Shown piece by piece: positions 10,692-55,264 of a DNA stretch of 64,000 nucleotides. The DNA lies in contig JBHGNT010000002.1 of assembly GCA_043228905.1 (NCBI GenBank), positions 10,602,001-10,666,000 on the forward strand, read 5' to 3'. This DNA is from Azolla caroliniana (Eukaryota > Plantae > Polypodiophyta). Each line of letters begins with the position of its first letter. The first letter of the stretch is position 1. Both the position numbers and the translations under genes were made by a program. The notes beneath the pieces were generated by a model. It worked only from the letters and a program-made list of their open reading frames with translations. It made no database searches and had not been told where the DNA came from.

Positions 10692-10984
10692 TCGTCTCAT
10701 TTGTAAAATTTTATAACTAATGGAAGGAGTTTTTTTTTGGAATATATATATATATATATATATAAGATCAACATATTCAGTCTTATAAACGGGGTTTAAT
10801 CATGTTTCTGTTGTGCCTACGATGCATATAAGGCTCAAATACCCAATGGAGTGTACATCCACAAAAAAATGTGTGGCAGTACATTTGTGATAACATAGAC
10901 AACTTGTGTATATGTCTCATGATTGCTTCAAATATGATGTCCAAATATGATCGTAGATCCATTGGTGGTTTTTGAAGATGGCAT

Positions 10985-11225
10985 GCCGACTGATTAATGT
11001 GGAGACCGACTCATTCATATTCATTAAAAAAGGGAGCCCCACTCATTAAAAAAGGGAGCTCGACTCTGGTAAAAAGGGAGCCCGACTAATTAATGTGGAG
11101 CCTGACTCATTCATGTTCATTAAAAAAGGGAGCCCCACTCATTAAAAAAAGGAGTTCGACTCATTAAAAAGGGAGCCCGACTCATTAAAAAAGGGAGCCC
11201 GACACTGTAATAGGGAAGTGCCCAA
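10985..11225. repeat. MULE internal/subterminal ~21-bp repeats (AAAAAGGGAGCCCGACTCATT)
   Basis: About 7 copies here, related copies at 4005-4070, and inverted copies (GAGTCGGGCTCCTTTT) at 13900-13955. Confidence 0.8.
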
Positions 11226-11447
11226 CTACGTGTAATGAGGGCGTCTCAACAGTCATATTAACGACTACAGTAAATTAATTCACCAAATTCAGTAGCATGC
11301 ACTAAGAGTCTTCCCATCATTCCCAATTAACCCATTCCCTTCCTTAACAGTCTATTAATCACTCGCACTCATATCATTCACTCTCATTCTCGATCGTTAA
11401 TCTACTCCATTCATGTGAATTATTTGAATTCATTCACTTGAATTCAT

Positions 11448-23000: not shown

Positions 23001-24407
23001 TCTAAATCCAACTCATTGTTGTTCATCCGGCAAGGTCCGGATGGTCTGGTTTGCATCCTACTTTATGTTGATGATTTAGTCATCACCGGACCTGAACTCA
23101 ATGAAATCGGCCGAGTAAAGTCCTAGCTATCAGACGCATTTGAAATGAAGGACCTAGGGGACCTTCATTATTTTCTTGGCATATTGCTCTCACAACGACA
23201 CTATGTGTTGAATATGTTGTACAAGTTCGGCATGACAGAATGCCGACCTGTGTCCACACCCCTGGACCGGAACCAGAAGCTCTGTCGCAACTCTGGACCG
23301 GCCTACGATGAGAAACGGTTCCGACAAATTGTTGGAAGCCTCATATACCTGACAATCAGTCGACCCGACATCAATTACCCGGTCGAAGTGATCAACCAAT
23401 TCATACAGAAGCCGATCGTCGAGCACCTTCAGTGCGCACACCGGATACTCCGGTATGTGAGCGGCTCGAAGGACCGGGGACTGTTATACCGACATGGTAT
23501 AACTGAAGAGCTGGTCGGATACATTGATGCCGACTGGGCTGGTGATGCATCGTATTGCCGATCCACCTCCGGTTACATGTTTTCTCTAGGTAGCATGGCT
23601 ATTGCATGGAGCAGCAAAAAGCAGCCAATAGTGGCTCTATCGAGCACTGAGGCTGAATACCGGGGCGCTACCAATGCCACCTATGAAGCCATTTGTCTTC
23701 GGCGACTGGTGCAAGACCTGCTGATCGACGTACCGACACCGATACTGATCTACTGTTACAACATGAGCAGCATTCAGCTTGCCAAGAACCCTGTATTCCA
23801 TGCTTGGACAAAGCACATAGAAGTGCGTGATCACTTTGTTCGCGAGCAAGTCTTGAGCGGTGAAGTTGAACTTCGGTATGTTCACACGAATCGGCAGGTT
23901 GCCGACATCTTCACCAAGCCGCTAGGATCAGACAACTTGCAACATTTTTCGGAGATGCTTGATATTCAACATCTCGATGTGCCGCACTTAAGGGGGAGAA
24001 AAGGAAAGGGAACGGATGGCACAGGACAAGGAGCCGAAGAGGAAGAAAGAACCTACAAAGGGGGAGACAAAGGGAAAAAGGAAGTTGAGTCGACAAAGGA
24101 AGTTGGCACATCCGAAATAGTGGAAACGAGTGGCGGCGGTGGTAGAATCAAGAAGGACAGGGCCGACTGGAGGGAGAAGGACAAGATCCGGACATAGTTT
24201 GATATGGTGAAGGGCCTAAAACCGGAAGATGAGTTGGAGAACACCGACTCGAACAAGAGCCGGAATGAATCAGGAGCGACTGATTCGGATAAGAGCGGGA
24301 ACGAATCAAAGGAAACCGATTTGGTTCAAGATTCGGAGAAGCCGGATCAACTAAAGGCCAAATGGACATGGACACAACGGAAGTCGACACCAACACGAAG
24401 GAACTGA
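20045..24407 (+). pseudogene. Copia gag-pol (gag, PR, IN, RT, RNase H, C-terminal extension)
   Basis: LDRSNYASW; WYVDSGTSNHMT; LWHKRIGH; QNGVAERKNR; KLDPKS; YKARLVAKGY; MDVKNAFLQG; LYVDD; YIDADWAG; SSTEAEY; KHIEV. Confidence 0.95.
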
Positions 24408-32684: not shown

Positions 32685-34885
32685 ATGTCCAGCCAAATGG
32701 AAGGGGAAGAAGGGTGTTTAGAATTACCCCTCAATGATCATAAGGATAGGGATGATGCTATCAAGACACAACAAGCCATACGAAACTATTGGGCAGAAAA
32801 AAAAAGGAAACATCATCAATTGTTGAAGGATGCGAAAGCCACACTTAGTAAAGGTAAAGATAGTTTAGCTGAGAATGTAAGTAATGCGACTACCATCATA
32901 GAGAGAAAGTTGTAGACTATTTCAATGTTCAAACCAAGCACATCAGCAATGAAGAAAAGAAGGTAGTACTTTATGGAATATTAAATGATCCATCAATAAA
33001 GGACTTAGTTGATTGTGATGGTCTTAATGCAAACATATCATCTATTTTAGTAAATAATCTTCGTAATAGTTTCGAATCCATGAGCAGGTCAGAAGATGAT
33101 ATTGTCTTAAAAAGGTCTAGTCTAATGATGTTACTTAATAGTGATGTTGACGATATAAACATCAATGAGCTATCTAAGGTAATTGGTGTTAGTAGAAAAA
33201 TAGTGTACAATACATTGAACCGTATAATTTCCTCGGGTGAAGGAACTAGTCTACTAAAGCTAACTACAAGATGTAAGCTAATGACACCCATAACATCAGA
33301 AATCAAGGATGTAATCACAATGTTTTGGACTAATGAGAGTAGGGTTTCACCCAATAAAAAGGATTTATGCAGGAAATGTGTTGGAAGAAATCAATACGAG
33401 GAGCATCCCATTCATCTTCTTGATGTACCTCAGGTATTTACATTTATCTCAACATTTGTTTTGACTGTACACGGAAAGTTAATTAGCTTATCAGTTACAT
33501 TTACCTTAGTTAGCTACTAGGATAGCTACTACATAAGTAACTGGCTACTCTCAATAGCTACTACCATGATAGCTAATTAGCTATTCTCAATAGCTAATTT
33601 AGTTACTACCACATAATTAGCTACCAAAATAGCTAACTAGCTACCATGATAGCTAATTAGCTATTCTCAATAGCTAATTTAGTTATTACCAGATAATTAG
33701 CTACCAGAATAACTAATTAGCTATTAGAATAGGGTTTTAGCTACCATGATAGCTAAATAACTACTAGAATAGCTAATTAGCTAATTAGCTATTAGAATAG
33801 GTAATTAGCTACCATGATAGCTAATTAGCTATTCTAGTAGCTAATTAGCTATTCTAGTAGCTAATTAGCTACTAGGATAGCTAATTAGATATCATGGTAG
33901 CTAATTAGCTGTCCTAGTAGCTAAATAGCTATCATGGTAGCTAGTTAGCTATTCTAGTAGCTAACTAGCTACCATGATAGCTAATTAGCTATTCTAGTAG
34001 CTAATTACCTATTCTAGTAGCTAATTAGCTATCATGGTAGCTAATTAGTTGTCCTAGTAGCTAATTAGCTATCATGGTAGCTAATTAGCTGTTCTAGTAG
34101 CTAATTAGCTATCATGGTAGCTAATTAGCTATTCTAGGAGCTAATTAGCTATTCTAGTAGATAATTAGCTATCATGGTAGCTAATTAGCTACCATGATAG
34201 CTAATTAACTACTAGGACAGCTAATTAACTACCATGATAGCTAATTACCTACTAGAATAACTAATTAGCTACTAGAATAGCTAACTAGCTACTAGAATAG
34301 CTAACTAGCTACTAGAATAGCTAATTAGCTACTAGGATAGTTAGCTAGTTACGAGAATAACTAATTCCCCTTTATTACGCAGGTCGATTTATTTATTAGG
34401 TTCAAACGAATGCATCCAAATATCAAAGTTCAATTACGAACATTCGAGTCTCTTAAGCCACACTTTGTGAGACGCTTAAAGGATCGATACACATGTTGTT
34501 GCATTTACCATGTACAGATGGGTTTTCTGAAGGACTTTGTTAATCTACTACGTCACCATAGTGCATCCCTAACTAATACAGTTTGCACATGTGGGTGCCC
34601 AATCTGTCGATCAAGCCCGCAAGAGGAGTATAAATCATCTAAGCACGTTATATCTTCCATGAGTTATTTATTAGATTCAATATTGTGTCCGAGAGAAACT
34701 GACGCTATCTTCCATAGTCATAAATGTGTCATGGGTTTATGTCAAGATCGTGGCCCTACTAGATTTAGGTGGTGTCCAAATGAATTGAGTAGTGAAATAT
34801 TGATCTCTGTGAAGTTATTTGAGTCAGTGAACACCAATTTCAAAGGAAAGGTGTGTAAAAGAAAGGATCTAGTTCGGAAGATGCG
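32685..34885 (+). pseudogene. Spliced Cys-rich transposase-like gene (tentatively Sola2-like), 3'-truncated by a Gypsy fragment
   Basis: GT-AG intron 33434-34382 joins ORFs 33080 and 34410 in frame (..LDVPQ|VDLFIRF..). Motif F..LKP..V.....TCCC..H followed by C.C..C and C..G.C clusters. Family assignment is from memory of motifs only. Confidence 0.55.
33480..34366. repeat. Palindromic ~20-bp minisatellite (TAGCTAATTAGCTA core) inside the intron
   Basis: About 40 units of a self-complementary core plus short linkers (TTCTAG/CTAGAA, CCATGA/TCATGG). Confidence 0.95.
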
Positions 34886-34894
34886 TTTACCGAG

Positions 34895-36312
34895 AGCCAC
34901 TACATGAAGCCGCATTGGACGAGGGAGACAATGGAGACTCCGGTTCGGATCGGGGATGTGAAGGAACCGGTGGTGGCATTGATCGACCATGGGTTGGAAA
35001 TTAAACTAATGTCCATGGACTTTTATAAGAAGGGAAAATGGCCGATCAACACCAAGCACGGGTGGAAGATATGCGCGGCTACGCGAGCCATGAAGGACCT
35101 GCATGGAGCATGCCCAAATGTTCGTGTAAGGGTCAGCGACATCGAGATAGACTAGCACTTCTTTGTGCAAGAAACATCCTCCCATCGGGTCATCCTCAAT
35201 GAACCCTATATAACAACGGCTCGAATGGAGACCAAGGTGTTGGACAATGGCTCAGCATACACGAGGTTGAAGAGCTAGGACAAATGGCACTTCGTCCAAT
35301 TTCTCACGGTTCACCCAAACCATGAGCATAATTGGGATCTCTCCGTAGTGATGACCGAGAGGATTTTTGAAGAGGGCTATTAAGGTGTGGGAGCGCGATA
35401 GTCCGGACAATCGGAAAAAACCCCACACCTGTACCATAGGTAGGAAAATTTTGTTCTCTGACAACAAAGGTTGTACTATAGCCGGCATTGGTGGCCGAGA
35501 CAAGAAGCGAGTCAAAGGGCGCTTGAAGGCGTGTGGAGCCTTGGGGCCCGATGAGGATATTGGCGACGCCGTGGAGGTGGTGTCATTCGATGACACCGTC
35601 AAGGAGATCGAGAGGGTAGTCGACGAGGATCTGAGCGAAGACCGGGTCATACCGATCAACTCAGTTGAGATGTATGAAGTCATTGTGGACTTCAAGAGGA
35701 AGATCGGGGTGAACCGGACCGCCCATGTGGACACAAAGTACAAGACTGTGGGCCGGAAGGTGAGGCTAGTCACGGCTCCCTTGCCAGAGGATAGTTAGGA
35801 GCGAATGAAAGGGATTGCTACCAACCCAAGTTTACGAGATCCGGCTTGCATAGGACACTGGTTCACCCACAAGCCTCTACGAGAGCTGAAGATCGATGGG
35901 GGTGGCTTCCTATTGCCAGTGGAAGAGGATTGGTTTCGGAGAATGCTCGAGAGGCACCGGAAAGCCTTCGCGTTCTTACAAGGGGAGATCGGGTACGTCG
36001 ACCCGACTATTGTAGAACCAATGGTGATCTTCACGGTACCGCATGTGTCGTGGAGTCTCAAGCCGATTCTAGTACCAAGGGCTCACATCCCGAAATTGAT
36101 GGAGCTACTTAATGAGAAAGTGGAAAAGGGTATCCTCGAACCGTCAAGCGTTCCTTATTCAAATCGGTGGTTTACGGTGCCAAAGAAGAATGGCTCACTA
36201 CGCTTCATTTAAGACCTGCAACCAGTCAACAAAGTGACCATTCAAAATGCAGGAGTTGGACCAACAATTGACGAGTTTGTGGAGGCCTTCGCCAGAAGGT
36301 CCATATACGCGG
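34895..36312 (+). pseudogene. Gypsy protease-RT fragment (tRNA-Trp-primed family)
   Basis: ALIDHG(S)EI.LM protease; PYSNRWFTVPKKNGSLRFI.DLQPVN RT start. Cut by an LTR at 36313. Confidence 0.9.
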
Positions 36313-37562
36313 TGTCGTGAAATTACGACGAGGATACGTGAACTTGAGGCAGGACCCCGGGGCCTCCGACCGGAAGATATCAAATACGTATGTTTATATT
36401 AAACAATTAATGGAAAATGAGAAAGATTGACAAATTTCATGAATAAATAGAAAAGAAAAATTACAATCAATCCCAAGATTGGGATTACAAAAGTTTTATC
36501 TTAAGGAGATTACTAGAATAATAGATTAGAGGAAATAAGAGATTATGATTCTTGAGTGATATGGCTTTGATAAGGAATTTTGGATTTTGAGAGATATGGC
36601 TTCCGTAGGGAAGATTAGCGTTTTTGAGTGTTATGGCTTCCGTAGGGAAGATTAGGGTTTGAGTGTTATGGTTTCCATAGGGAATTTTGGGTTTATGCCA
36701 GTTATGGCTTCTCTCAGATAAGGGAGCTGAGAAGGAAAAGAAAAAAATATATATTATGGAGAGAGCCTATGGAGAGAGGATGAGAGTATAGGAAAAAAAA
36801 TGGAATTTTATATGGAGTTCTCCCTTGATCATCTGCATGTCCACTTTTTGTTGCATGGCCTCTACTTTTAGTTGCTTAGCTTTTTCTTTTAGTTGCATCT
36901 ATTTTTAGTTGCATGGCTTTTTCTTTTAGTTGCATGCGACCGTCCACATGACCTTTACTTTTTGCATGCACTCCAACTTTAGTTGCTTGCGTCCACATGG
37001 CCTTTACTTTAGTTTGTTGCATGATCCATTCTTCCGTCCGTCCACGTCCAACCTTGTCTGATAGCCGATTCCGCTCGATCGACGAATCCCTCGCCGGCCA
37101 GTTCCATTTTGCTTGCCGGCCGGTTCCAGTTTGCTTGCTGGTTCCGGTTCTGATTTTGCTTGCCGACCGGTTCCAGTTTGCTTGCCGATTGGTTTTGATT
37201 CCGGTTTGCTTGCCGGTTCCAATTTTGCTTACCGGCCGGTTTTCGGATTTTGGGAACTTTGCCACCATCATCCATCAAGACAAAGTGGCCAAAGTGCTCT
37301 TAGCACAAATGAAAAATGAGGGAGCTCAAGGTGCTTATATAGCTAGGGCCTTAAGTTTCCTATCTATGTGGGATAGTTCTAATTTCCCTATCTTCTCAAA
37401 CTTCATTTTCAGATAACTTGATATGTATTTCTCCATTTTGTATATAGTAAAATACGTTTTGAAGCTCTTGAGTAAATCCATCTTTCTATAGTAAGCTACT
37501 AATATAATCTATAATAATTATTTCATTATTTTTTTACATAGTGTGTGAAGATTCACACGACA
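36313..37562 (-). mobile_element. Gypsy 3' LTR with adjacent PPT
   Basis: TGTCGTG...CACGACA termini; PPT-like sequence (rc TTCGCCTCCACAAAA) at 37563-37577; homologous to 61119-62464. Confidence 0.85.
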
Positions 37563-37599
37563 TTCGCCTCCACAAAACATGTACAATGTGCATGAGAAC

Positions 37600-38155
37600 T
37601 AAAGTTAGCAAAACCGTGATGCTTGCATGTGATAAACTTAGACTCTTCCAACACTATATAAGGAAGAGAGAAAGATGTATAGGTGTTGTTGATTTTTATA
37701 AGGTTTGAATATTATAAAGTAATCGTGGGATTCACGATTTTGCCATCTATTTCTCTCTTACAATCTAAGTATCAATTAATACACTATACTCGTCGGATTC
37801 ACGAGTTTCATATCTTCTTCTTGCAATCTCTTCCTAAATAACATTTTCTCATATTCTTCTTTCTCCTAGTCCAAAACCCCAGCGGTTCCCACCCGAGTCA
37901 CGCAAACGATATGGCGCTGTAAGACACGACACAAGTGGTGAACCCGATGTGAAGTCGGGTGGCAAGGAGATGGAAAATCAAGGTGGGGCTAACAACATGA
38001 TGGTGATGTTTGAGCGGATGCAACAAGAACAACGTGCGATGTCGAAGATTGCGACGACTGTAGAGCGGCTCGTGCAACGGAACGGGCAATTCAATGGGAA
38101 AGATGTGTTCGGTATTTGCAAGATTACAAAGCGGAAATGCTACGGTGCGGAATTG
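37600..38155 (+). mobile_element. Gypsy LTR end + tRNA-Trp PBS + gag start
   Basis: LTR ends ...CACGACA at 37931; PBS TGGTGAACCCGATGTGAA 37936-37953; gag VERLVQRNGQFNGKDV. Confidence 0.8.
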
Positions 38156-39595
38156 ACGTGCTTCGTACACGTCCCTTTGATTCATCTCCCTTCTATATGC
38201 ATCAAGGAACTTTGTAATGTTCCATCCGTCAAATTGACCCTCGAGCTCAACGACACGGTCGATGGCCCTGTCCACGCTCGCATCGTTGTCTCGAGATCTC
38301 ATCATTTGTTGGACGATCAACATCATCCTTTCGAAGTCTCCCACTTGGTTGCTTGAGGATGCCATCTCCAAGTATCGGTTGATCCTCGATTTGATCCTTC
38401 TTGCTGCCTCTTTCACATCGGGTTCACCACTTAATTATGTCGTGAAGATCTGTCACTACTTGTGGATCGTGAGGCGGAACCGCCAGGGTTTTGGACTGGA
38501 AGGATTTGAAGTATGCACAAGCTTTAGCGAGAAAGGAATTAAGATAGATTGAAAGAGAGAGATTGAGATAAGATAGAACATTTGATTTTTGGATTGAGAG
38601 AGAGTTTTTGAGAGACAAGATATATCATCAATTGGATAACAAATTTATTATTTTTAATTTTAATTTTGATATCAAGTACAAAGCTTCTTTGATAAGAATT
38701 TTAGATTACAAAATCCCCTCTTTAATCTTTTTCATCCCCTCTTTTATAGATGCCCTCATGCATTTGAGGGTTCAAGACATGCATAAAATGCATGTTTGCC
38801 ATTTGGTGCTCATGTATTACATGTGGTGCATAATAACCACGTCACTCATTTTAGCTCTCATGTATGAGAATTTACATACAAAGTTACAATGATAAAAATA
38901 TTATTTTAAGAAAATGTCTTGGCTTAGTGGTAAGCTTATAGACTCTCAACTTGGAGGTGTAAGGTTCAAATCCACACTTATACTCCTTGTGTATATATAT
39001 ATGTGTATACATATATTTATTTATATATTTATCCGGTCGCCGGATGCCGGATGACGCCGGTTACCGTCGATCGCCGGTTGCCAGAATCCGATTATCGTTC
39101 TGTCGTCGGTTGTCGGATTCCCGTTACCGTTCTGTCACCGGATTCCGGTTCCGTCGTCGGTTACCATTCGGTCGCCGGAAGCCGGTTACCGTTCGGTCAC
39201 CGGGTCCCGGTTCCGTTGCCGGTCTAGTTTTGGTTGGGCAAAACCTTTGCAAGTAGTCATGTTACACCCATTCATCCAATAGCTTAGTTCAAGTCACCTT
39301 GAACTCTCTATGCTCCACACATAGACACAATATAATAGCTTTTGCTCTACCTTATATATGGTGAGATCCTTATTTCCTGTCTATGTGGGAGATACTCCCA
39401 CATAACTTGTCACTTAGATGTCCGTTTTTTATGTAGTAAAGTACATTTGAAAGCTCTTGAAGACCTCCATCTTTTTGTACTAGGATATTAAACATATTTT
39501 AATTATTATCTTTCCTATTATTGTTTTATATGAATCACACTCGATTTAATACGTTTTATTTTATTTTCACACCATTGCCGAAAATGTTCACGATA
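38156..39595 (-). mobile_element. Gypsy 5' LTR + tRNA-Trp PBS + gag start
   Basis: LTR 38438-39595; PBS (rc TTCACATCGGGTTCACCA) 38412-38429; gag RAIDRVVELEGQFDG.NITKFL. Confidence 0.85.
38913..38985 (+). ncRNA. Degenerate tRNA-like (A-box/B-box) cassette within an LTR
   Basis: TGGCTTAGTGGTA (A box) and GGTTCAAATCC (B box) at tRNA spacing; no intact cloverleaf. Confidence 0.55.
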
Positions 39596-39599
39596 GCGG

Positions 39600-42500
39600 A
39601 AGCAGCAAGAATCAGATGAAGAGGAGGTAAAAACAAGTGCCATAACCATGGAAAGATCGAAACAGGAGGAGGAAGAAGAAGTGATGGCGGACAACCATTA
39701 CTCTCGGCCTCATTGGGCACGAGCGACAACGGAGACGCCGGTGAAGATCGGAGAGAAGAAAGAGACCGCGGTAGCCTTGATTGACCATGGTTCGGAGATC
39801 AACCTCATGTCAACCAAATTCTGCAAGAAAGGAAGGTGGCCGATCAACACAAACCATGGATGGAAGATACGAGCGACAATGAAGGCCACGGAAGACCTAT
39901 ATGGAGGTTGCCCCAATGTTAAGTCACGATCGGAGATGTGGAGATGGATCAACACTTCTTCGTGCAAGACTCGTCTTCACATCCCGTCATCCTAGGACAA
40001 CCATATATCACATTGTCCCGGATGGAGACTAAGGTGTTCAATAATGGAGCGGCCTTCGCACGAGTCAAGAACCTTGAAAATCAAAGGTCTGTTCAATTCC
40101 TTATCGTGCGGGCTAATCACGAAAGGAACCGAGATAGCGTTGGAGGCGAATCCTCGGATTTTTAGAGCGGACTATTGAAGCGTGGGGCACAAATAGTTCG
40201 AGCAATTATATGTCTCCACAAGGAAGCAAAATAAGTGGATCTCTAGGAAAAGCAACATGTGTGACACCTAGTGGCACATGTAAACTAACACTACTCAACA
40301 AGAAGGACAAGCGTTAGATACAAGACTTCGAGAAGATGCTGAAAGAAGAAAGCATAATCGAAGAAGAAGAATTTGTGTCTCATATTCTAGAGGAAGCCTC
40401 ATTTAACAACACCATCGACGAAATCGAGGAAGTCGTGGACTTGAGCTACCCTCACGATCAAAATATGATTTCGGTTAACTCCGTCAACATGTACGCTATC
40501 ATGGATGAATATCATCGAGTCATCTTGATGGAGGAAGCTGAAGTCAACACAAAATATAAAACGGTGGATAAGAAGATCAAGCCAGTTGCGGTTCCGCTAC
40601 CGGAAGATAGCTGGTAGAAGATGAAGGAAGTTGCTAATGATCCGAGCTTAAGGGATGCAAAGGCAATAGGTCATGTCTTCACCAAAGAGACAAAAGGAAA
40701 GCTACAAGTTGGAATGGAAAATTTCCTTCTCCCTGAAGAGGAGAGAATGTTCCGTGGAATGCTTGAGAGACATGGGAAAGCCTTTGCCTTCTCTCCACAA
40801 GAGATCGGATGTGCCGACCCGAAGATAATAAAGCCGATAATGATTTTTACGGTGCCACATGTACCTTGGCACCTCAAGCTGATACTGGTTCCAAGAGCTC
40901 ACATTCCGAAGTTGATTGAGCCTCTAAAAGAAAAGGTTAGGATGGGAACACTTGAGCCGTCCAATGCTCCCTACTCCAATAGATGGTTTACGGTGCCGAA
41001 GAAGAACGGGTCCTTACGCTTTATTCAAGATCTCCAATCCGTCAACAAGGTGACGATCCGAAATGCCGGAATTGGTCCAAGTGTGGATGAATTTGCCGAA
41101 GCCTTCGTGGGAAGATCGATCTATTCCATTGGTTATCTCTACTCGGGCTATGATCAATTTTAACTGGCCGTCAATAGTAGAGACATAACGACAATGAGGA
41201 CGCCGATCGGGTTGGTAAGGATGTGCACCTTACCCCAAGGTGCAACAAATTCCATAGCCCACATAGTGAATGCCATGAACAAAGTGTTGAGGGATTGTAT
41301 CCCTGATATCACAATGCCCTTCTTAGATGATATTCCAATCAAAGGATGCTTGGTGGAAGAAAAAGATGAATCGAAAGATGAAGATGGTTGCCGAAGATTC
41401 ATCATCGATCATATAAAGGATAGCGAGAAGGTGTTGCAAAAACTTGAGGATGCAAATTTGGTCAACCAGAAAATTTGGTAGTAGCACACTTATGTGGGTC
41501 TTATGGCCGGAAGCCATCTCCATCCAAGGTGAACGCTATTCAAGAGATGAAAGAAGAATATGTGTCTCAAACAGAGGTGTGAAGATTCTTGGGAGCATGT
41601 GCATTCTATCACATATGGATTCCACATTATGCTCATGTCGTTGAACCATTGTATGGATTACTAAAGCAAAGGAAAAAGTTTGAATGGGAAGATGAGCATA
41701 CCTACGCGGTTGAAAAGCTAAAGAAACTATTACTGGAAGCTCCATCACTGCGAAAAGCCAACTACACCGAAGCTAGCCCGATATATGTGACAATGGATAC
41801 GAGCCCAACCGGAATTGGATGGGTGATAAACCAAGAAGACAAAGAAAAGAATCGGTATGCAATCGGATTCAGTGCAAAGGTGTTAACCAAAAGACAAAGG
41901 AAGTATGCCCAAGTAAAGAGAGAGCTATGGGGAATAGTATCCGCGGTTAAAACCGATCGTGACTGCCTTATCAGAACAGAGGTCATAATTGAGACTGATT
42001 GTCTGCCTATTCTTGGAATGATATCCGATTGTGCTACACCGGATATTGCTATGCTGTGATGGATTTCCTATATCAAGTCCCTCAACCCCGAGATTCAATA
42101 TATAAATGGGAAGCATAATGTGGTGGCCGATATGTTATCAAGGGCAAGGTATGAGGGTGAAGAAGATTTCCACTCCGACGAAGAAGATGTTGGCCTAAAC
42201 TTCTTTACGGTTTCTTGTGCTCGAGTGCTTGTCATGTTTAAAGTAGAAGATTATGAGGGTGAATTCGTTGAAATTGGCAAGTACTTAAGCTCTCTTACAA
42301 AGGATGAATCATGGTCAAAGGAAGACTTCTACCGAATTAGGAAGAAGGCCTACAAGTTCTTCCTCAAAGAAAGACATCTATGGAAGTTTCCAAAGAAGAA
42401 GAGTGGAACTCCACTTCGAGTGGTGTGCAAGAAACAAGATCAACAAACACTAATTTCTGAATTTCATGATAGTGTGTGGACAGGTCATTGAGGTATATGT

Positions 42501-45012
42501 GCAACATTTGCAAAGCTTAAGGAGAAGTATTGGTGGTCGGGTGTTTACAAAGATGTAGCAAGCTATGTTGAAACATGTGAGCAATGCCAATTATACTCGA
42601 ATATTCAACATAGGGATGAACTTCATCCAACATATCCATTATCAATGCACTATAAGTGGTTGGTAGACATAGTGGGCATGCCGATGGGATTGGGACAAAT
42701 GAAGTATCTCATGCTAGCAAGAGAGGATCTCACCAACCAAGTAGAAGGACGAGCGCTAAGGAATAAAACAACTTCGGTGGTTTGTAAGTTTCTCCTTGAA
42801 GATGTTATTTGTCGATACGGATGTGTTGGCAAAATAGTAGCTGATAGGGGAGAATTAGATGCGAATGAAGCTAAAGAATTCTTTTCAAGAATAGGCATCA
42901 AACTATTGCTCACCATGGCATACAACCCGGACGCAAATGGGAAGGTGGAACGAGGACATAGTCCGATTGTAAAAGCTCTAGCAATGGCTTGCCACGACAA
43001 GATGGGGAATTGGCCACGATTACTACCTTATGCATTGTGGGCTGACAGAACTACACATACCACAACTACAGGATATATGCCGATGACAGAACTACACATA
43101 GCACAACTACAGGATATATGCCGACCGAACTTATATTAGGGCAAAAACCAATGATGCCTATCGAGCAAAGTGTTGCTTCGTGGACATCTTTGCCATGGCA
43201 AGAGGAAATGAGTCGGGAAGACTTGCTAACCATGAGGATTCAACAACTAGAACGGAGGCCCGAAGATGTCGAGTTGGCAATAGAACGGTTACGCCAAGCT
43301 CGACTGAAGAACAAGGAGAATTTTGATATAAAGCATTGTCTTTGACAAAGAAAAATTGAAGAAGGAGATTGGGTTCTTGTCTATGATAGTAGTCTCGACA
43401 ATCAATATAGCAGTGCTCGAAAGTTCGCAAAACGATGGTTTGGGCCGTATATGGTCAAGAAAATAAGAAGCAATGCAACCTATTTTTTAGTGGAGTTAGA
43501 TGGAACTCGACTTGCTTTGCCAATTGCAGGGAAAAGAATCAAGATCTTTAAGAGAAGAGAGGCCCCAAATCTTGAGATCGAAGCTCTAGATGATATAGCC
43601 TCGAACATTGAGTTTGAAAAAGAGTAATTAAAAGAGGAACCTCACCACAATTGGCACATACCAATGGATGTGCAGGTTTGGTGGGGGTGAATGTCGTGTG
43701 GTTTTTCACACACGATATGAAAACTAGTAAAACAATTATTTAAGATTAGCTTAATGTATTCATATAGATGTCGTGTGTGTTTTAACACACGATATGAAAA
43801 CTAGTAAAACAATTATTTAAGATTAGCTTAATGTATTCATATAGATAGATTTCTTGAAGATCTTCATAGCGTATTTTACTACGCATGAAACGGATAAACA
43901 AGTATCAAGTTATATGAGTGTGAAGTTTAAAGAAGAAGAAAGAAAAGACAAAATTGTGAGATATCCCACATAGATAGGACAACATTGGAACCCAGGATAT
44001 ATAACGGAAACCAAAACATATTCATTCTATCAATGTGTGGAGCATAGAATGTTCAAGGTGACTTGGGCTGCACTATGTGGTGTGCACGCTTCAGGCCTAT
44101 GCGTGTATGCATGGTCGTGTAACGCTTCGGGCATGTGCGCGTGTGCAAGTTTTGGGCATACGCGTGCACGACTGTGTGGATGTTTTGGACGGACGTGTGT
44201 GTGCAGATGAGCGTGCGGATGCGTACACGGTGTGGTCGGGAGTTTTGCGCGCGACCACGTGGACATTTCAAACGGATGCGTGTGTGCGGATGAGCGAGCG
44301 GATACGTACACGGCGCGGTCAGGACTTTTGCGCGCGGACGCGTCTACGATTTGGTTGTGACACACGTATGAATTGCGCACGGGCTAAACTTTATGGATGA
44401 TTGGGTCATTTGACCAAATTATACGGACGGTCGCATGCAACTAAAAGCCAAGGCCATGCAACTAAAAGTAAAAGGCATGAAACTAAAAATGGAAGCATGC
44501 AACTAAAAATAGAGGCCATGGAACTAAAAGTGGACATGCAAAGTAACATTGGGAAGGAGGATCAACAATGAGCTGAATATATGTTCCATTCCTTTCCCTC
44601 TACTTTCTTTTTTTCTTTTTTTCTTTTTCCCTCTTCCTTCTTCTTTTTCTCTCTCCCATTTCCTTGAGAAACAAATTATCTCTAAGATTGATATGAAACT
44701 CTTGGATGGGCTTGCTCAATCTTTCTTGTCAAAAATTATCTCTCATATTCATATTAGACCACTCCTTACATGGCTGTTGGCTCCTTTCTTTAAAAAAATT
44801 TTATCTCTCATTTTCATCTTCAACCCGTAGTAACAAGATTCTTGAATTATAAAAGAATCTATTTTCTTATGCTATAAACGAACGTTTTCTCTCATTTATT
44901 CATCTTATATGTGTACTTTGCTTGTGTTGTACGTGTTGCACTAAATCATTCTAGTCCAGAACCCCAACGGTTCCGACTCACGATCCGCACATAGTAACGG
45001 ATTTTCACGACA
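39600..45012 (+). mobile_element. 5'-truncated Gypsy: PR-RT-RH-IN, PPT, 3' LTR
   Basis: ALIDHGSEINLM; LPQGATNS; FLDDI; DTSPTGIG; VADMLSR; IVADRGE; NGKVERGH; WFGPY. PPT about 43677-43691; LTR 43692-45012 ending CACGACA. Confidence 0.93.
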
Positions 45013-45825
45013 CCAGAAAGACCTTGGAGTGCTTCTGGAGGACACGACCACCGAGATTGGCCTCACCGATATTTGGGATAATGTGCGAGATATTGTCGCA
45101 CGATACACAAAGAGGGGGCAATGGCTTGCTAACGAAGAAAAGAGGGTTTCAGAACCGATTCCGAAACCGAGATCCGGATAGGAAGACCATCAACCGCGGG
45201 GCGGGCTCAGGAGACTACGACCGAGAAGGGAATCGACGCAACCACAGTGGAGCAGTTGCTGAAGGAGATGGAAAATCTAAAAATCGCGATGGTGAAGAAG
45301 GCGGATGACCGTCCCACAAGTTCCAAGTATATGGACCGTCGGTGTATATGCTGTGATAGCACCGAACATGATAGGAGGGATTGCGACGAGCACAAGGAGG
45401 TGTTAGGACGAGATCTTATCTACTACGAGGGAAATCAGATTCATTCGATGGACTCTCGGATGCCACTCCGACCGAACTTCCGAAAAGGCAACATGAAGAA
45501 GGTCCTAGAGGAGGAGATCACGACGAAAAACAATTAAGCGACAACCGTAGGAATACGTGTCGGGGAGTCATCTGGAGCAAAGGCATCTTTTTGGCTGAAA
45601 GTGCTAGAAAACCCCGAGAAAACCGACTCCAATGAGATTCGAACCACCGCGGAAGGCATTCGTGAAGCTATAGGATGGGAGTGCCCCGTCGATAAGAATA
45701 GCGTGTACGCCTTATGTCAATTGCATGAAGTGTATATAGACGAGAAACAATGGCGCACGGAAGGGAAAAGAAACCGGAAAGCTGGAACTCCGGAGGGAAG
45801 GGAAAAGAAAAGACGATTCTGGCAT
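45013..45825 (+). pseudogene. Gypsy gag fragment (Zn knuckle)
   Basis: RRCICCDSTEHDRRDC; homologous to the gag at 47500-48138. Confidence 0.75.
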
Positions 45826-48204
45826 TCAATCCTGCGTTCCGAATGGTCACTCTGTTGACCGGTTGCAGGTCTTGAATGAAGCGCAATGTCCCGTTCTTCA
45901 TCGGTACGGTAAACCACCGGTTCGAGTACGGGGCACTCGACGGTTCGAGGATGCCCATATCGACTTTCTGCCTCAATAGCTCCATCAGCTCCGGGATGTG
46001 AGCTCTTGGTACCGGAATTGGCTTGAGATTCCACGGCACATGCGGTACCGTGAATATCACCATCGGCTTCACGACTGTCGGGTCTACGCACCCGATCTCT
46101 TCCGATGAGAATGCGAAGGCTTTCCCGTGCCTTCCGAGCATTCTCTGAAACCAGTCTTCTTCCGCCGGCAGTAGGAACCCGCCCCCACCTATTTTGAGCT
46201 CCCGTAGCGTTCTGTCGGTGAAGGCGTGCCCTATGCAGGCCGGATCTCGTAAACTGGGGTCCGACGCGACCCCCTCGATTCGCAACTCGCTACCCTCCGG
46301 TAAGGGTGCCGCGACTGGCCTTACCTTCTGGTCCACAGTCTTGTACTTCATGTTAACTCGGGCCGTCTGATCCGACTCGAGCCCTCGACTAAAGTCCGCG
46401 ATGACTTCGTACATTTCTTCTGAACAAACCGGTATCGTCCGGTTCTCTTTAAGGCCCTCTCCGACCACCTCTCGCAGTATTCCCAAGGTATCGTCGAAGG
46501 AGACCGCCTCCACGGCTCCGTAGATTTCCTCGCTGGGCCCGAGAACTCCGCACGCCCGAAGTCTCTCTTCCGCCCTTGTCTTTTCTCAGCCAACGACGCC
46601 GACTATCGTACACCCTCCGTTTTCGGAGAAACAAAACTTGCTACTTATGGTACCAGGTTTCTTCGGTTTCGCATCTATCGTACATATGTGGGGTTTTCCC
46701 GGATTGTCCGGACTGTCGCGGCCCCACACCTTGGCAGCCCTCTCTAAAAATCCTCTCAGTTCTCGCCACCGAGGGACTCGCGGTTTCACTCGTGGTTCGG
46801 TCGCACCGTCAAGACCTGGACCGAATGACGCTCGTCCTGACTCTTGACCCTCGTGTAAGCCGACCCGTTGTCCAGCACCTTGGTCTCCATTCGCGTTGCC
46901 GTAATGTATGGTTCTCCCAGTATGACCAGGTGCGAGGACGTCTCCTGCACAAAGAAGTGTTGGTCTATTTCGACGTCGCCGATCTTGACTCGCACGTTTG
47001 CGCAGGCCCCGTGTAGTTCCTCGGTGGCGCGCGTTGCCGCCCGTATCTTCCACCCGTGCTTAGTGTTGATCGGCCATTTCCCCTTCTTGTAGAAGTCCAT
47101 GGACATCAGGTTAATTTCCGAACCGTGGTCCACCACCGGTTCCTGAACATCTCCGATCTTCACCGGGGTTTCCGTGGTCGCTCGGGCCCAATGTGGCCTC
47201 GAGTAGTGGCTCTCCACCCATTCGTCTTCCAGCGCCATGTCCTCTATGTGCGCCGTCCGCACCTCCACCGGCCTTCCCGGTTCTGCCTCCATTGACAGCC
47301 TCTTCCTCTTCACCAAGTCCACGATGGAGTCGTGGAACTCCTTCTTGGCGATCCCTAGCACCTCCCGCAACGACAGTTCCACCTTGCTGTCGAGGATTTG
47401 TTCTTCCAGGACCTTTCGTAGGTCCGTGGTCCTTTCGATCTCCGTGCCAAAACGGTACCCGCCCTTTTTGTGGTTATCCCGAGCATTGGACTCACCAGCC
47501 TAGTTCCGTTTCGGCCCAAATCGGGTTTCATATCTCTGTGAAGATCCGACTCCTCCGGGTTTACCTACCCGTTTGTCTTCAACCAGAGCCTCGTAGTTCT
47601 GGCAAGCCGCTTGGACGAAACCCGTCTTTTCTTCGACCGGGTCACCCCACCCGGTTACGTCCTGGACCCGCTTCTCCACGCGGTCCACCTCGTCTCTCTT
47701 TAGTCGGGCACCGGCGAGGCCTTCCAGCACCATCGGCCAGAACTCGGCTTTGCTCTCCTTCCGGGCCTCGCTGCCTCCGACCCGAATACTGGCTGACGCT
47801 GAGTAGTGGACGGTCTCCGCGTGCCGGGCTGCCGCCTCTTCCATCAACCTTTTCATTCCTCCTCGCCCGTCATTTCGGTTCAGGGCCCTCCGGGTATCGC
47901 TGGCGTGCACCCGACCTTCACACAGGTACACTACCCGGCTTCTCAAAGCCTCCATAAAGTCCCCGCAATCTTTCCGGATGTGGCCGACCTCGTCGCACCA
48001 CATGCACCTACTTCCTGCCGGAGGCCGTCGGTCACGAGCCTGATCGCCGCCTTCTCTCCTAGCTTGGGCGATCTGGAGATCCTTTACCGTTCGTGTCAAC
48101 TCCTCCAAAGTTGTTCCCCCGGACGAGCCTCTTACCACGCTGGTCGAAGCTGAACCGGTTTTGAGCCACTCCCGGGTCTCTTCCCTTCGCGCCTGCGGTA
48201 TCGG

Positions 48205-49101
48205 TAGGGATCGGCAACGGCTAGGCTCAAGCCTAAACCGTTTGGCCTAACGGTTTGAGCTCGGCTCGGCTCGGCTTGAGCCTCGCCAAACCGGCTCAAG
48301 CCGGCTAAGTCGGATAAACCATTTAAGTCGTTTATAAACTTTAGAGAGGGGAAGAGACAGACAAGGGGAAAGAGAGAGAGAGAGAGTGAGGGAGGGAGAA
48401 CTACATAGACGAGGAGAGAGAGACAGAGGGAGGGAGACAACATATAAGGAGAGAGAGACTACACAGAGGGGAGAGAGAGAGAGATAGAGAGACTACACAG
48501 AGGGGAGAGAGAGAGAGAGAGAGGAACTACATAGAGGGGAGAGAGAGAGAGACTACACAGAGGGGAGATAGAGAGAGATAGAGAGACTACACAGAGGGGA
48601 GAGAGAGAGAGAGAGAGGAACTACATAGAGGGGAGAGAGAGAGAGAGAGGAACTACATAGAGGGGAGAGAGAGAGAGACTACAGAGAGGGAGAGAGAGAG
48701 AGAGAGGAACTACATAGAGGGGAGAGAGAGGGAGAGGGAGAGAGAGTCAAAGACCACATACGTGAGAGAGAGTGGGAGGGAGAGCTTGTACAATGTATAG
48801 TATATAGTATATAGTATATAGTATATAATGGATCATTTGAGAGAGAGGGAGGTAGGGAGAGAGAGAGAGAGGGAGGTTTCTAAACCGGTTTCCAAGCCGG
48901 TTTGGAAACTGGTTTACAAGCCGTTTACCAAGCCGGTTCACAAACCGGTTTAGCATAAACCGGTTTAGCCTAACCGGTTTGTGAACCGGCTCGGCTCGGC
49001 TCGGCTCAAGTTTGAGATCCTGTAAACGGTTTAGGCTTAGCCGGTTTGGCTTGATCCAAGCCAAACCGGCTAAGCCTAAACCGAACCGTTGCCGATCCCT
49101 A
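48205..49101. mobile_element. hAT-type non-autonomous element (MITE), 897 bp
   Basis: TIRs TAGGGATCGGCAACGG / CCGTTGCCGATCCCTA; perfect 8-bp TSD GGTATCGG (48197-48204 / 49102-49109); subterminal AAACCGG repeats; GA-rich core. Confidence 0.93.
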
Positions 49102-50078
49102 GGTATCGGTTCGAGCTTCCTTGCTGCGACAGGTCCCGCCTCGGTCACCTCTGTATCAGCCCACTCCCACCGTTTGTCAAAACGGCCGCAGACTCTTTTT
49201 ACCACGGCCCAGTCGGCCATCGGCCCGTCTTCGGTTTCCAGTAAGGAGCCAACTTGCCCCCGATCCCGTGCGTCAACCGATTTGACAAACACCAGGACAC
49301 GACTTGTGTCCAAAACGGTCCGATCGAGCGCCGAAAGGCGCGCAAAGCGTTCCTCAAACTCCCAGAGGAGTACCGACACATTTCTTCCTTTGTTGGGGGA
49401 CTCCACCCACTCCATGAAGCTCCGCTTAGAAAGTCGAAGCGTGTCATCCAGCTCGTATTTCTCCAGGAGCCGTCCTTCGAACTCCTCCCAGGTCCGGCTC
49501 TTCGCCCGGACCTCGAGCACCTCCGCATGGATGCCCGGCATTGCCACTCGAGGGAATCCGGCAAGACGCCTCTCTTCCGGAATATCCATCATCAACATCT
49601 CCGCCCGGTAGGACGCCAAATAACTCGTGGCATCCTTTCCACTGAACCGGCCGATAGTACCGACGATCGCCTCAATAGCCCTGTCAAGGGCGCCGGTGCC
49701 CTCCCGCACGCTCACTATCCAGTCCACAGCCGAAGCCATGGCCTCTGCAAGATCCGAACCCCTCATCTTCTACTCCTCTGCCGCCTGTTTCACGTCGGGT
49801 TCACCAAATATGTCGCGTTACTACGCGCGTGCGTGGAGAAACGAGGCGGGACCACCGGGGTCTTGGACCGAAGAGCAAGTGATAGAAGGGGAATGAGAGA
49901 GAGAGAGACGCCCTGTCACGTATGAGTAAGAAACACAGGGGCACGGTCTGTCAACATAGAAGACGCGAATGGACAAAGAGACAGGGAGACACAAGTGTTT
50001 GTATATTAACGAATATCAAATACACAATAGAGCACGCGAGCGGTTACAACCGAACAGGCCGGCGAACAGATGTCGATG

Positions 50079-53000
50079 TGACAGGAACCCAACGTTCCTT
50101 ATGCGCAACGCTCGGCCACAACCGAGCTTAGAATGATAGACAGAAAAACGGGAAATAAAACGCGACACAAAGAAGGAGAGAATACACAGGAGGTTTACGT
50201 GGAAAACCCAAAACTAGGGGAAAAACCACGGCAGCCCACAGGCTGCAAACTGTCACTATGTAGGAATATACAACAGTGAGTTCATAGAGGCACTGACCTC
50301 GTGCTCACAAATCTTCGCCACAGGCGGTGGTTACAACAGAGGCGACGACCTCTTTCTCTCTCTCTCTTTCTGTACAACGTTACGTACTCTCTCTTCTTCT
50401 TGCACCAACAAGAAAATGACAACAACGACAGTTGCTAAAAGTTTGCCCTAAGTCATATTTATACTAATATGAATTTTTGGCTATTTACAAATGTAGCCTC
50501 GATGGGCTCTCAAAAACATATTTACGAATATGTCTCTTTATCCGGTTCATACCGGGCCTGCACCATCCGACTCTCCGTAGCCAGGTACTCCTCATCCGGT
50601 TCATACCGGGCCTGCACCATCCGGCTCTCCGTAGCCGGGCACTCCTCATCCGGTTCATACCGGCCTTGCACCATCCGGAGGGACCTGTCTCCCAACAAAC
50701 TCCCCCTTCACTCCGGCATGGGGTGTCTTACCAGTCCAATCCGCTTCCGGCATGCGTCCAGCTTGTCGGGTATCAGAACTTTGGTCAGCATATCTGACCT
50801 GTTCTCGGTCGTGTGGATCTTCGTCAGCACGAACTCCTGGTCATCTACTCTTTCCCAGATCCAGTGATACCTCTGCTGGATATGCTTCGTCCGGGAATGG
50901 TAGGCCGCATTCTTAGCAAGGTGGATGGCACTTTGACTGTCACAATAGAGTCGGTATTCCTCTTGCCGTTTACTGAGCTCTCCGATGAAGTCCTTCATCC
51001 ATAAAATTTCCTTACCGGCTTCCACAGCCGCCATGTACTCCGCCTCCGTGGTTGACAATGCAACCGTCTTTTGCAGCCTCGACTGCCACGAAACAGCTCC
51101 CCCTGCATATGTCATTACATACCCGGATGTAGACCGGCTAGTATCCACATCAGCCGACATGTCCGAATCGGTGAAACCGTCCAGTTGAGGTTTTCCGGAG
51201 TCGAATCGGAGACACATATTTGAAGTGCCCTTCAAATACCGGAGTATCCACTTGACCGCGTTCCAGTGCTCCTTGCCGGGATTACTCATGAACCGTCTCA
51301 CCACTCCGACTGCGTATCCAATGTCCGGTCGGGTACAGACCATAGCGTACATCAAGCTCCCGACGGCCGAGGCATATGGGATCTTCATCATATCCGCCTT
51401 CTCTGCAGTTTACCGGAAGTGTCAATCCGACCGGTTTCGCTTCTGACATGTTGAACCGGTGAAGCACCTTTGTCACATACTTCTCTTGTGACAGCCATAA
51501 TTGCTTCGCTGACCAGTTCCGGATGATGTGCATCCCCAACATCTGTCTTGCCAGACCCAAGTCTTTCATTGAGAAGGTCCGATTGAGAGCCTTCTTCAGC
51601 ATCCGTATTTTGACTTGTTCCCGTCCGACGATCAACATGTCATCCACGTATAGAAGGAGTATCAGGAAGTCGCCTCCTTCAAACTTCTTCACAAACACGC
51701 AGTGATCGGCCTGCGTCTTGTGGTACCCTTGATCGGTCATGAAGGAGTCGAACTTCCGGTACCATTGCCGGGGAGCCTGCTTCAGTCCGTACAGGCTCTT
51801 CTTCAACCGGCATACCAGGTGCTCCTTCCCTTTCTCCACAAATCCTTCCGGTTGCTGCATGTAGATCTCCTCTTCGAGGTCGCCGTGAAGGAATGTCGTC
51901 TTCACGTCCAACTGCTCTACCTCGAGGTCCATGCTTGCTGCTATACTCAGCACCATCCGGATGGAGGTCATCTTTACTACCGGGGCAAATATCTCGTCGA
52001 AGTCCACGCCCTTCTTCTGCTGGAACCCCTTCACCACGATCCTGGCTTTGTATCTCGGGGGGTTGCCGGCATCTCCCGGTTTCAACTTGTACACCCACTT
52101 GTTTCGGAGTGCCCGCTTTCCTTTCGGCAACTCCACCAACTCGTACGTATGGTTCTCATGCAGGGAATCCATCTCGTCCTGCATGGCACTTAACCATTTT
52201 CGGCTGTGGGTGTCCTCCTTCGCTTCTTCGAAGCTTTCCGACTCCCCCTCATCGGTCAGAAGAACGTGCTCTGCATCCGGAAATCTCCGAGGGGCCCTTC
52301 TCTCTCTGAGAGGATATCTCCGTCTTTGGGCTTCGGTAGCCGGCTCCTCCATTTTCTCTTCATCCGAATCCGATTCGGGGTCTTGGCCAGTTCCGGTCTC
52401 AGCTTCCCCTTCCTCTTCTTCTGCCGGTTCGGTATCCTCACCGTATCCGGCTGGTTCCTCGAGTGCTAACCGGTCTCTTGCCGGTTGGGTCTGCTCATCG
52501 TAGAGTCTATCCTTACCGGTCGACTCGGAGTTCATTATCTTCTTCTCCGACTCCCAGTCGGCAAGCGTCTTGTCCTCCATGAAGATAATATCTCGACTCC
52601 GGAATACCTTCTTGTCGACCGGGTCCCACACTCGGTAGCTGAACTCATCGTCACCGTAACCAAGGAATATGCATGGCCGGGTCTTTGGATCTAGCTTTCC
52701 TCTCCGGTCCTTAGCTACATGCACGTAAGCGAGACACCCGAACACCTTCAGATGCCGGTAGGATACTTCCTTACCGGTCCACACTCTCTGTGGCGTGTCT
52801 CCGTCCAAGGGTACTGAGGGTGATCTATTTATCACATATGTCGCCGTCGACAGTGCCTCAGCCCAAAACTTCTTGGGTAGTTTTGCATGCGCTAGCATAC
52901 TCCGGACCCTCTCCATTATGGTCCGGTTCATCCTCTCGGCCAGTCCGTTTAGTTCCGGCGTCTTCGGCACAGTAAATTCGAGCCGGATTCCCTTCGAGCG

Positions 53001-55264
53001 GCAGTACTCCTCGAACTACCCCCGGTACTCTCCTCCGTTATCTGCTCGAACTGCCTTCAGCTTCCGGCCGGTTTCTCTTTCCACTCTCGCGTGGAGCTCT
53101 TTGAAGACGGATAACACCTGATCCTTCGTCTTCAACGGTGTGGCCCACAGCTTCCGGCTGTGGTCATCTATGAACGTCACGAAATACTGCGCTCCGGCAT
53201 CTGACTTCGTGTCTACTTGACACACATCCGTATGCACCAACTCTAGTGGTGCATTACGTCTCATTGGTGGCCTTGGTCGGAAGGAGGTCCGGTTCTGCTT
53301 CCTGGCCAGACAATCAGTGCACTTCTCTAAGTGCACGTTCTTCACTGGAATGAGGTTGTCGTCTGCAAGCCTCTTCATCCCCTTCTCGCTCATGTGACAC
53401 AGCCTCTTCTGCCACAGCTCACCGGCAGTGTCGGATGCCACGTTCACTTCTTCCGTACATACCCGGGCATTCATCAGGTACAGTGTGTTTATCTTCCGGG
53501 CCCGAGCCACAATCAGGCTCCCTTTGCTGAACTTCATGACACCGTTCCGGATGCTACCCGTGTAGCCTTCATCATCTAGCCGACCGGCTGATATCAGGTT
53601 CAGACAAACTTCCGGAACGTGTCGGACATCCTTCAGCAGCAACTTGCATCCGGTTGGTGTTGTCAGCCACACGTCTCCTATGCCGACAATTCGGCATGTT
53701 CCTTCATTCCCCATCCGGACACAGCCGTGATCACCGGCTGAGTAGGATGAGAAGCATTTCCGGTCCGGGATAAGGTGGAATGACGCTCCAGAGTCTACCA
53801 CCTAGGTCATCTCGTCATCGGCAAGGTTTATCTCACTCTCCTCGGTGATGAGCATCAACTCTTCTTCACTTGCCGCGATTGCCGTCGTTCCCTTCCGGTC
53901 CGGCCCCCTCCGGTCTTTACCGTTACGGTCCGGGGTTTGCTTCGAATCGGTACCGTCGGTTTCCTTGTCTTTACGAAAATGCCGACAGTTCTTTTGGAAG
54001 TGACCCGGCTTGCCGCAATAGAAGCAAGTAGGCCTCCCCCTTGACTTTGACCGTGTCCCCGACTTCTCCTAGTTCTGGGGACTACGGTTTCTATGTCTTC
54101 CGCCTTCCGATTCGGTAAGAAGCGCTTTGGAGTCGGAGCTCGTATCTTTGTCTTTCTGACGCGCCTCCTCATCTAGCAAGCTCGACTTTACTCTTGCTAG
54201 GGATAACCGTTTTCCTTCCGGCCCGGCGTTGCCCAAAGTGACAACCAACGTCTCCCAGCTATCCGGGAGGGAACTGAGCAGGAGTAGCGCAAGTACCTCA
54301 TCGGCGAGAGGTACTTCTAATGAAGTTGCCTGGTGGATCAGCCCCTGGAAGGCATTCATGTGCTCCGCCATGCTGGAGCCATCTTGGTACCGGAGTCTTA
54401 CTAGCTTCCGGAATACCGACACCTGATTGACAGCATTTTTGTTCTGAAACATTATGCCGATCTTCTCCCAGAGCTCATGAGCCTTGCTCTCTTCATTGAA
54501 GTTGTTGTATAGGCTCATGTCGATGAAGCACCGTATGTACGTCGTTGTCTTCATGTGCGTCACCTCCCATATCGCGGCGTCGATTTTGTCTGGTCTCTTG
54601 TCCCCGAACTGAACCAGCAGCCAGAGGTCTTTAACTACGAGCATGTCCCTCATCTTCGACTTCCACACTAAATAGTTGGAGCCGGTGAGCTTGAACATGC
54701 CGCCAAACGATTCGTCCATTTTCTGTGTCGATTTCGCTCTGATACCACTTGACAGGAACCCAACGTTCCTTATGCGCAACGCTCGGCCACAACCGAGCTT
54801 AGAATGATACACAGAAAAACGGGAAATAAAACGCGACACAAAGAAGGAGAGAATACACAAGAGGTTTACGTGGAAAACCCCAAACTAGGGGAAAAACCAC
54901 GGCAGCCCACAGGCTGCAAACTGTCACTATGTAGGAATATACAACAATGAGTTCACAGAGGCACCGATCTCGTGCTCACAAATCTTCGCCACAGGCGGCG
55001 GTTACAATAGAGGCGACGACCTCTTTCTCTCTCTCTCTCTCTCTCTGTACAACGTTACGTACTCTCTCTTCTTCTTGCACCAACAAGAAAATGACAACAA
55101 CGACAGTTACTAAAAGTTTGCCCTAAGTCATATTTATACTAATATGACTTTTCGGCTATTTACAAATGTAGCCTCGATGGGCTCTCAGAAACATATTTAC
55201 GAATATGTCTCTTTATCCGGTTCATACCGGGCCTGCACCATCCGGAGGGACTTGTTTCCCAACA
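50079..55264 (-). mobile_element. Full-length Tnt1/Tork-like Copia element
   Basis: LTRs 54750-55264 and 50079-50697; 5-bp TSD CGATG; iMet PBS 54736-54747; PPT 50698-50708. Confidence 0.96.
50708..54719 (-). pseudogene. Copia gag-pol polyprotein, lightly disrupted
   Basis: VDSGASFH; LVHTDVC; RADNGGEY; TPELNGLAERMNRT; QLDVKT.FLHG; LYVDDML; PYASAVGSLMY; RTKHI. A few stops and frameshifts. Confidence 0.95.

Follow-up and report, generated by a model that had tools for sequence, protein, structure and literature searches.

The junction between the protease and reverse transcriptase (RT) reading frames of Phygy Ty3/gypsy retrotransposons is very probably a site of programmed -1 ribosomal frameshifting, which, judged from sequence, best explains its arrangement. 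At this junction, ORF1 ends with the heptamer G_GAU_UUY and a stop codon, and ORF2, which overlaps ORF1 slightly, begins in the -1 frame. The junction was studied from a 64,000-nucleotide stretch of the Azolla caroliniana genome (the window), in which three sites are decayed copies of Phygy elements. An earlier note on this DNA had proposed that the family makes Gag-protease in frame 0 and needs a shift to make RT, RNase H and integrase. This proposal is supported by a retropepsin fold before the stop codon and an RT-RNase H-integrase ORF after it, the shift itself being predicted. The signal is real and lineage-wide, and searches of the open literature gave no description of the arrangement.

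Upstream of the junction, the elements carry an ORF containing DUF4100; the domains downstream are RT, RNase H and integrase, arranged as in Ty3/gypsy elements according to Pfam searches of window ORFs and open copies. A zinc knuckle (CX2CX4HX4C) is visible in ORF1. The protease domain is recognised through fold search only: the last 166 residues of ORF1 have a retropepsin-like predicted fold (pLDDT 75) that matches the Ddi1, XMRV, EIAV and HIV proteases, and sequence searches gave no Pfam protease match and one, unrelated, PDB match. In the copies read (window 39780-39800 and homologs), the catalytic motif is D-H-G instead of D-T/S-G; a fern homolog (P0075) has D-S-G.

The RT shares 102 of 119 residues (about 86%, compared by eye) with the REXdb Phygy-1 reference and is unlike the Selgy and Ogre references. 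The REXdb table of Neumann et al. 2019 (PMC6317226) gives a tRNA-Trp primer site, an NCGN target duplication and the lack of a chromodomain as marks of Phygy. Young relatives of the window copies have a primer site complementary to tRNA-Trp, whose reverse complement sits in a genomic tRNA-Trp(CCA) gene; three such genes also form a tandem, at a spacing of about 700 nt, in L250:44-1521. Matching 4-bp target duplications flank 17 of the 21 elements with readable ends, all of them NCGN, and Pfam finds no chromodomain and a single RNase H region. The elements are 7.3-8.0 kb long compared to 7.66-9.97 kb for Phygy in REXdb, with the young -1 family slightly under that range. In the same source, Phygy is described from P. 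patens only, while the homologs found here include fern and liverwort proteins. A looser form of the junction motif, GGATTTYTRRNNNGGRYY, has 4,316 matches in the 523-Mb genome compared to 26 for the reversed control.

In the window, the junction motif is present at all three sites where the earlier note had placed it, namely 35361 (+), 40156 (+) and 46753 (-). In the plus-strand copy A, the slippery heptamer G_GAT_TTT (40156..40162) encodes D-F, the two final codons of Gag-protease, and is followed by a 6-nt spacer (40163..40168) that starts with the Gag-protease stop codon TAG (40163-40165). The predicted stem 1 (40169..40199) pairs 40169-40176 with 40192-40199 through 8 pairs, one of them G-U, and the predicted stem 2 (40182..40219) pairs 40182-40187 with 40214-40219, leaving a loop 3 of 14 nt. 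The protease domain remnant of ORF1 (39693..40165, +), with the motif ALIDHGSEIN, is broken by a frameshift near 39915. The ORF2 remnant (40156..43597, +) has RT (from 40546), RNase H and integrase behind a linker of about 130 codons, and it is interrupted by several stops and frameshifts. A tRNA-Trp-complementary primer-binding site at 37936..37952 (+) is probably that of copy A, its assignment being made uncertain by nested insertions.

Copy B is a plus-strand fragment (34895..36314) with protease, junction and the start of RT; its heptamer (35361..35367) is followed by TGA (35368-35370) and a predicted pseudoknot at 35374..35429 (stem 1, 35374-35381 with 35397-35404; stem 2, 35384-35391 with 35422-35429). 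Copy C lies on the minus strand (45827..49806), with a tRNA-Trp primer site at 49806, an interrupted Gag-DUF4100-protease ORF (49694-46744) and an ORF2 truncated in RT at 45827. Its heptamer (46747..46753) is followed by TAG (46746-46744) and a predicted pseudoknot at 46686..46740 (stem 1, 46740-46733 with 46717-46710; stem 2, 46729-46722 with 46693-46686). The motif GGATTTTTRRNNNGGRCT (GGATTTT, stop, 3 nt, GGRCT) has these 3 matches in the window compared to 0.00 expected from 100 shuffles, and the copies are members of three different subfamilies. All three are decayed, because the RT frame of copy A meets stops 53 and 153 codons downstream, the protease frame of copy C has TGA codons already upstream of the heptamer, and copy B has lost one nucleotide about 23 nt upstream of its heptamer relative to the sister copy L062. 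This deletion agrees with the 1-nt indel that the earlier note had called for in copy B. It had also been claimed that the -1 frame of the heptamer is the RT frame, which is true for all three copies; among the positions cited for that relation, however, 47053 lies in the protease, 300 nt upstream, and 46753 was probably meant.

The frame relation extends well beyond the window. A search of the same genome with the three window junctions found 90 loci, 6 of them without RT. Relative to protease, RT is at -1 in 63 of the other 84, at +1 in 15 and in frame 0 in 6; the 21 loci that are not at -1 are put down, as a group and not locus by locus, to indels after insertion. The heptamer and stop codon are kept in 75 of the 90. 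Among 37 metagenome loci (11 without RT), RT is at -1 in 24 of 26, and the two exceptions are broken. A Phygy-type junction (L249) also occurs in a contig that is listed as part of a cyanobacterial genome assembly; the bin likely contains plant DNA. The heptamer reads G_GAT_TTY in 12 of 12 family representatives, in which the 12 bases upstream vary. In 8 of 12 representatives, a stop lies in the -1 frame no more than 9 codons ahead of the heptamer (no more than 20 in 11), so that entry into this frame is limited to a few codons.

In 60 ten-kb stretches, mostly picked for a long ORF1, the junction was located in 57. Both ORFs are open in 15 copies, with RT at -1 in 3, at +1 in 12 and in one frame with protease in none, so that the observation named beforehand as refuting the proposal, protease and RT in one frame, is absent from all 15. 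The three open -1 copies have an ORF1 of 710 codons and an ORF2 of 1158 codons that overlap by 22 nt, and LTRs that are 96.9-99.5% identical; in young copies, 1150 codons of the downstream -1 ORF are open. Homologs ending in QDYG or QDFG were considered as a read-through variant and rejected, being Gag-protease-only deletion derivatives with the 3′ LTR directly behind. Such derivatives include L129, L169, L238 and L299 and the metagenome loci L121-L123, in which a polypurine tract and the 3′ LTR adjoin ORF1. They are likely mobilised in trans, because the LTRs of L169 are 99.5% identical.

The RNA downstream of the heptamer has a conserved structure. In a MAFFT alignment of 19 real copies (11 of them from three related groups), there are no gaps between the heptamer and stem 1, which starts 6 nt past the heptamer. 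In L116, the stop codon comes one codon later and the stem still begins at 6 nt, so the distance of the helix is tied to the slip site and not to the stop. Stem 1 (alignment columns 14-23 with 35-44) is paired in 83% of cells, with 8 of 10 pairs changed on both sides, and its covariation score, computed with kinship ignored, is 0.499 compared to 0.259±0.030 when shuffled. Registers slid away from this one are 25-37% paired and score at most 0.139, and RNAalifold recovers the inner 8 pairs unaided. When arms are swapped among representatives of 13 families, stem 1 drops from 8.5 to 6.6 pairs (0/20000) and the stem 2 score from 15.9 to 13.4 (11/20000), both again with kinship ignored. The amino acids encoded by the helix region vary freely.

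The earlier note had claimed that stem 1 changes in sequence while keeping its pairing. This needs correcting in that copy A has one G-U pair and copy C pairs at only 7 of 8 positions, with a C-A mismatch; three copies alone could not show covariation, although the family-wide alignment does. Stem 2, which had been drawn from a GTGGGG loop, covaries across families but is weaker than stem 1. It is short (4-9 pairs), occurs as GTGGGG/CCCCAC, GCAGGGA/TCCTTGC, GCAGGA/TCCTGC and TGAGGG/CCCTCA with a loop 3 of mostly 11-18 nt, and within single families is often indistinguishable from shuffles (p 0.001-0.33). For copies B and C, nested folding gives stem 2 together with another hairpin in preference to stem 1. 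Stem 2, which has less support than stem 1, would complete an H-type pseudoknot. Rfam has no match at E≤1 in window 35200-47000.

In the proposed mechanism, most ribosomes would stop at the end of ORF1 and release Gag-protease. A minority would pause at the pseudoknot while GAU and UUU occupy the P and A sites, slip back by one base to re-pair, and continue to make Gag-protease-RT-RNase H-integrase. Tandem slippage on G_GAU_UUY would thus yield much Gag-protease and little Gag-protease-Pol, setting the Gag:Pol ratio as in avian alpharetroviruses. As part of this explanation, the signal would have been selected in the active ancestors of the dead window copies, and it is intact in young relatives.

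Several elements of this arrangement have precedents. The earlier note had cited GGAUUUU as a known -1 slippery heptamer, and it is in fact an experimentally mapped -1 site on plant ribosomes in PEMV, where a nearby stop codon raises efficiency, according to the PEMV results given in PMC4737148. Umbraviruses and dianthoviruses (PEMV2, G_GAU_UUU) thus have the identical heptamer, a close stop codon and plant ribosomes in common with Phygy, but their stimulator is a bulged hairpin with long-range pairing, while that of Phygy is predicted to be a compact local H-type pseudoknot. At the gag-pro/pol junction of alpharetroviruses (RSV/ASLV) and the pro-pol shift of MMTV/HTLV, protease is made with Gag and a -1 shift leads into RT, as proposed here, and the heptamer is likewise followed by a structure 5-8 nt downstream (from the account of RSV and MMTV arrangements in PMC12789967). 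Unlike these viruses, Phygy is a plant retrotransposon, uses G_GAU_UUY and places a linker of 120-155 codons before RT.

Other explanations of the frame break have to be weighed. Splicing could join Gag-protease to RT, with the helix as a splicing or packaging signal, given that Ogre has such a split with a spliced intron (described in the Ogre entry of PMC6317226), that TTTTTAG resembles an acceptor, and that ab initio gene predictions for P. patens, Adiantum and Riccia place introns at the junction. Those models, however, use many different acceptors, and the AG is replaced by TAA, TGA or CCT in some families. A conserved GT is lacking, 3 of 11 families having none in the 45 nt upstream. The region after the stop codon stays open in the -1 frame, with no gap. 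Moreover, the linker is conserved as protein, at 30-48% identity between families and with the fewest changes at codon position 2. The Ogre/Retand (Tat) elements carry an intron-containing spacer or a single in-frame stop together with an aRH, whereas the Phygy frames overlap and the junction shows no non-coding spacer with stops and a conserved GT-AG. Among contigs of four runs whose type was guessed, 2 cover the stretch, and of 5 skips none is a GT..AG across the junction, an outcome that carries no weight either way. An open, conserved linker and splice dinucleotides that are not conserved count against splicing, which is considered improbable.

Translation of ORF2 on its own, through reinitiation or internal initiation, is rated lower again. 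The short overlap around the stop codon would suit it, as would an AUG 5 codons before the heptamer in most copies of a sister family with RT at +1, but in the -1 families the first Met is scattered from codon 8 to codon 113 (12 representatives), and the invariant heptamer with its constant 6-nt distance to a helix would go unexplained. Finally, most copies are decayed and all are related, so that the break could be an inherited defect, conserved through the protein end and common descent. Against this, the break is shared by families at 40-65% protein identity to one another and is retained by copies whose LTRs are 99-100% identical and whose two ORFs are open, and the stem changes in sequence while its pairing stays. 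With 15 copies open in both ORFs and none in one frame, an inherited defect is largely refuted and hardly credible.

Homologous proteins also bear on how far the frame break extends. The protease end is reached by 74 of 120 near-length homologs, with a D-F terminus in 49, and by 113 of 120 longer homologs. Among 91 ORF1 homologs called from contigs, 64 end in D-F, 18 five residues further, 3 in N-F and 6 otherwise; tail lengths are 18 to 38 residues and none of the 91 runs into RT. In a 50%-identity library, 78 of 121 new matches reach the protease end, of which 15 end in D/N/G-F, 18 end within 6 residues of it, 25 continue for over 60 residues and 20 belong to none of these groups; among those that continue, many look like spliced gene models. 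The D-F ending extends to relatives at about 40% identity. The frame break is not universal, because P0334 (a contig ORF, 44% identity) reads protease into RT in a single frame.

Homologs with a named source belong to P. patens, Adiantum and Riccia, and one Riccia protein (P0205) ends in D-F. Many gene models of these plants bridge the frame break by varied predicted introns, which are likely annotation artefacts; in P. patens, 14 of 18 do not end at D-F+5. Other proteins end in G-F (P0186, P0195, P0218, P0330, P0340), N-F (P0200, P0203, P0223) or V-F-P/Y (P0055, P0150, P0371), and such ends are compatible with other candidate slippery sites, G_GGU_UUU, A_AAU_UUU and G_GUU_UUU. Viral contigs yielded one locus, unrelated, and no match to the motif of the sister family.

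This sister family is a young Phygy family of the same genome, outside the window, with RT at +1/-2 (L163-L168, L172, L177-L197, L246; about 169 first-look candidates). Its LTRs are mostly 99-100% identical. RT is at +1 in 12 of 12 fully open copies, in 16 of 20 pattern-found loci with protease and in 10 of 15 older copies with RT. The pseudoknot is retained, with 10 of 10 stem-1 pairs and the same phase relative to the RT frame, and the spacer is 5 nt, so that a stem of 10-12 pairs begins 5 nt downstream. Of 29 loci, 27 carry the site CAG_GTT_TTT and 2, one of them fully open, carry CAA_GAT_TTT; in a GAC variant, the -1 frame hits TGA at once. In trees of protease (L061 dropped) and of linker-RT (L232, L117 and L246 dropped), which are rooted at the midpoint only, the family falls among the -1 families with modest support, and L001 and L090 have long branches from broken frames. 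The family to which it is sister, represented by P0150 (ending QVFY), was not found in the same genome.

The sister-family site AG_GUU_UUU is identical to the -2/-1 site of the arterivirus PRRSV (nsp2TF; site as given in PMC7618472), in which the -1 frame also stops at once (as stated in PMC4937337). The PRRSV site lacks an RNA structure and depends on nsp1beta/PCBP at a C-rich motif; in the sister family, this PRRSV-type, protein-stimulated motif (CCCANCUCC) is absent from the 60 nt inspected and a stem is present instead. The shift product would also be essential Pol, unlike that of PRRSV. By analogy, the site may work like that of PRRSV without belonging to the arterivirus-type -2 class. 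It has been reported that the best spacers for -2 shifting are 1-2 nt shorter than those for -1 (in the spacer data of PMC3458567).

About an even chance is given to -2 slippage in this family; CAA_GAT_TTT, which re-pairs poorly at -2, and the +1-frame AUG that most copies have 5 codons upstream speak against it. Slippage by +1 is a doubtful alternative, reinitiation is unlikely, and some other mechanism is more unlikely still. It is an evenly balanced proposition that the same pseudoknot would promote -1 shifting in most families and, in this young and recently active one, -2 shifting into essential Pol after the loss of one spacer base and the change of G_GAU_UUU to AG_GUU_UUU. If true, this would be a natural RNA-stimulated switch from -1 to -2, of the kind predicted by the spacer-tension model. 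The sister family and a -1 family form a natural pair, one spacer base and one slip-site base apart, which tests directly whether a shorter spacer converts -1 into -2. The cassette is easy to test, because it is short and exists in thousands of copies and many natural versions.

In the REXdb description of the lineage, which the earlier note had suggested consulting, the ORF organisation of Phygy is given as ND, and the table (PMC6317226, additional file 5) lists no lineage as GAG-PROT overlapping RT-RH-INT. As far as the text of Neumann et al. 2019 on this point goes, splits after GAG-PROT are noted for Ogre and Retand only, by a spacer or a stop. A 2003 survey, as summarised by Atkins 2016, yielded only +1 cases from plants. 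Vendrell-Mir 2020 makes no mention of a frameshift, ORF, splicing or Phygy, and the Retand paper contains nothing relevant to such a signal. Searches of the open literature gave no description of the Phygy signal; subscription journals, Repbase or GyDB may contain an earlier note of it. The frame break explains the introns that gene finders invent, and the Pol that they mis-annotate, in Phygy elements.

Other repeats are also present in the window. A Copia element at 50079-55244 (-) has LTRs that are 96% identical and remains of Gag, protease, integrase and RT. Remnants of a LINE-like endonuclease and RT and a second Copia RT occur at 5741-13139 (+) and 22134-24197 (+), and a degenerate tandem array with direct and inverted self-matches lies at 33507-34369.
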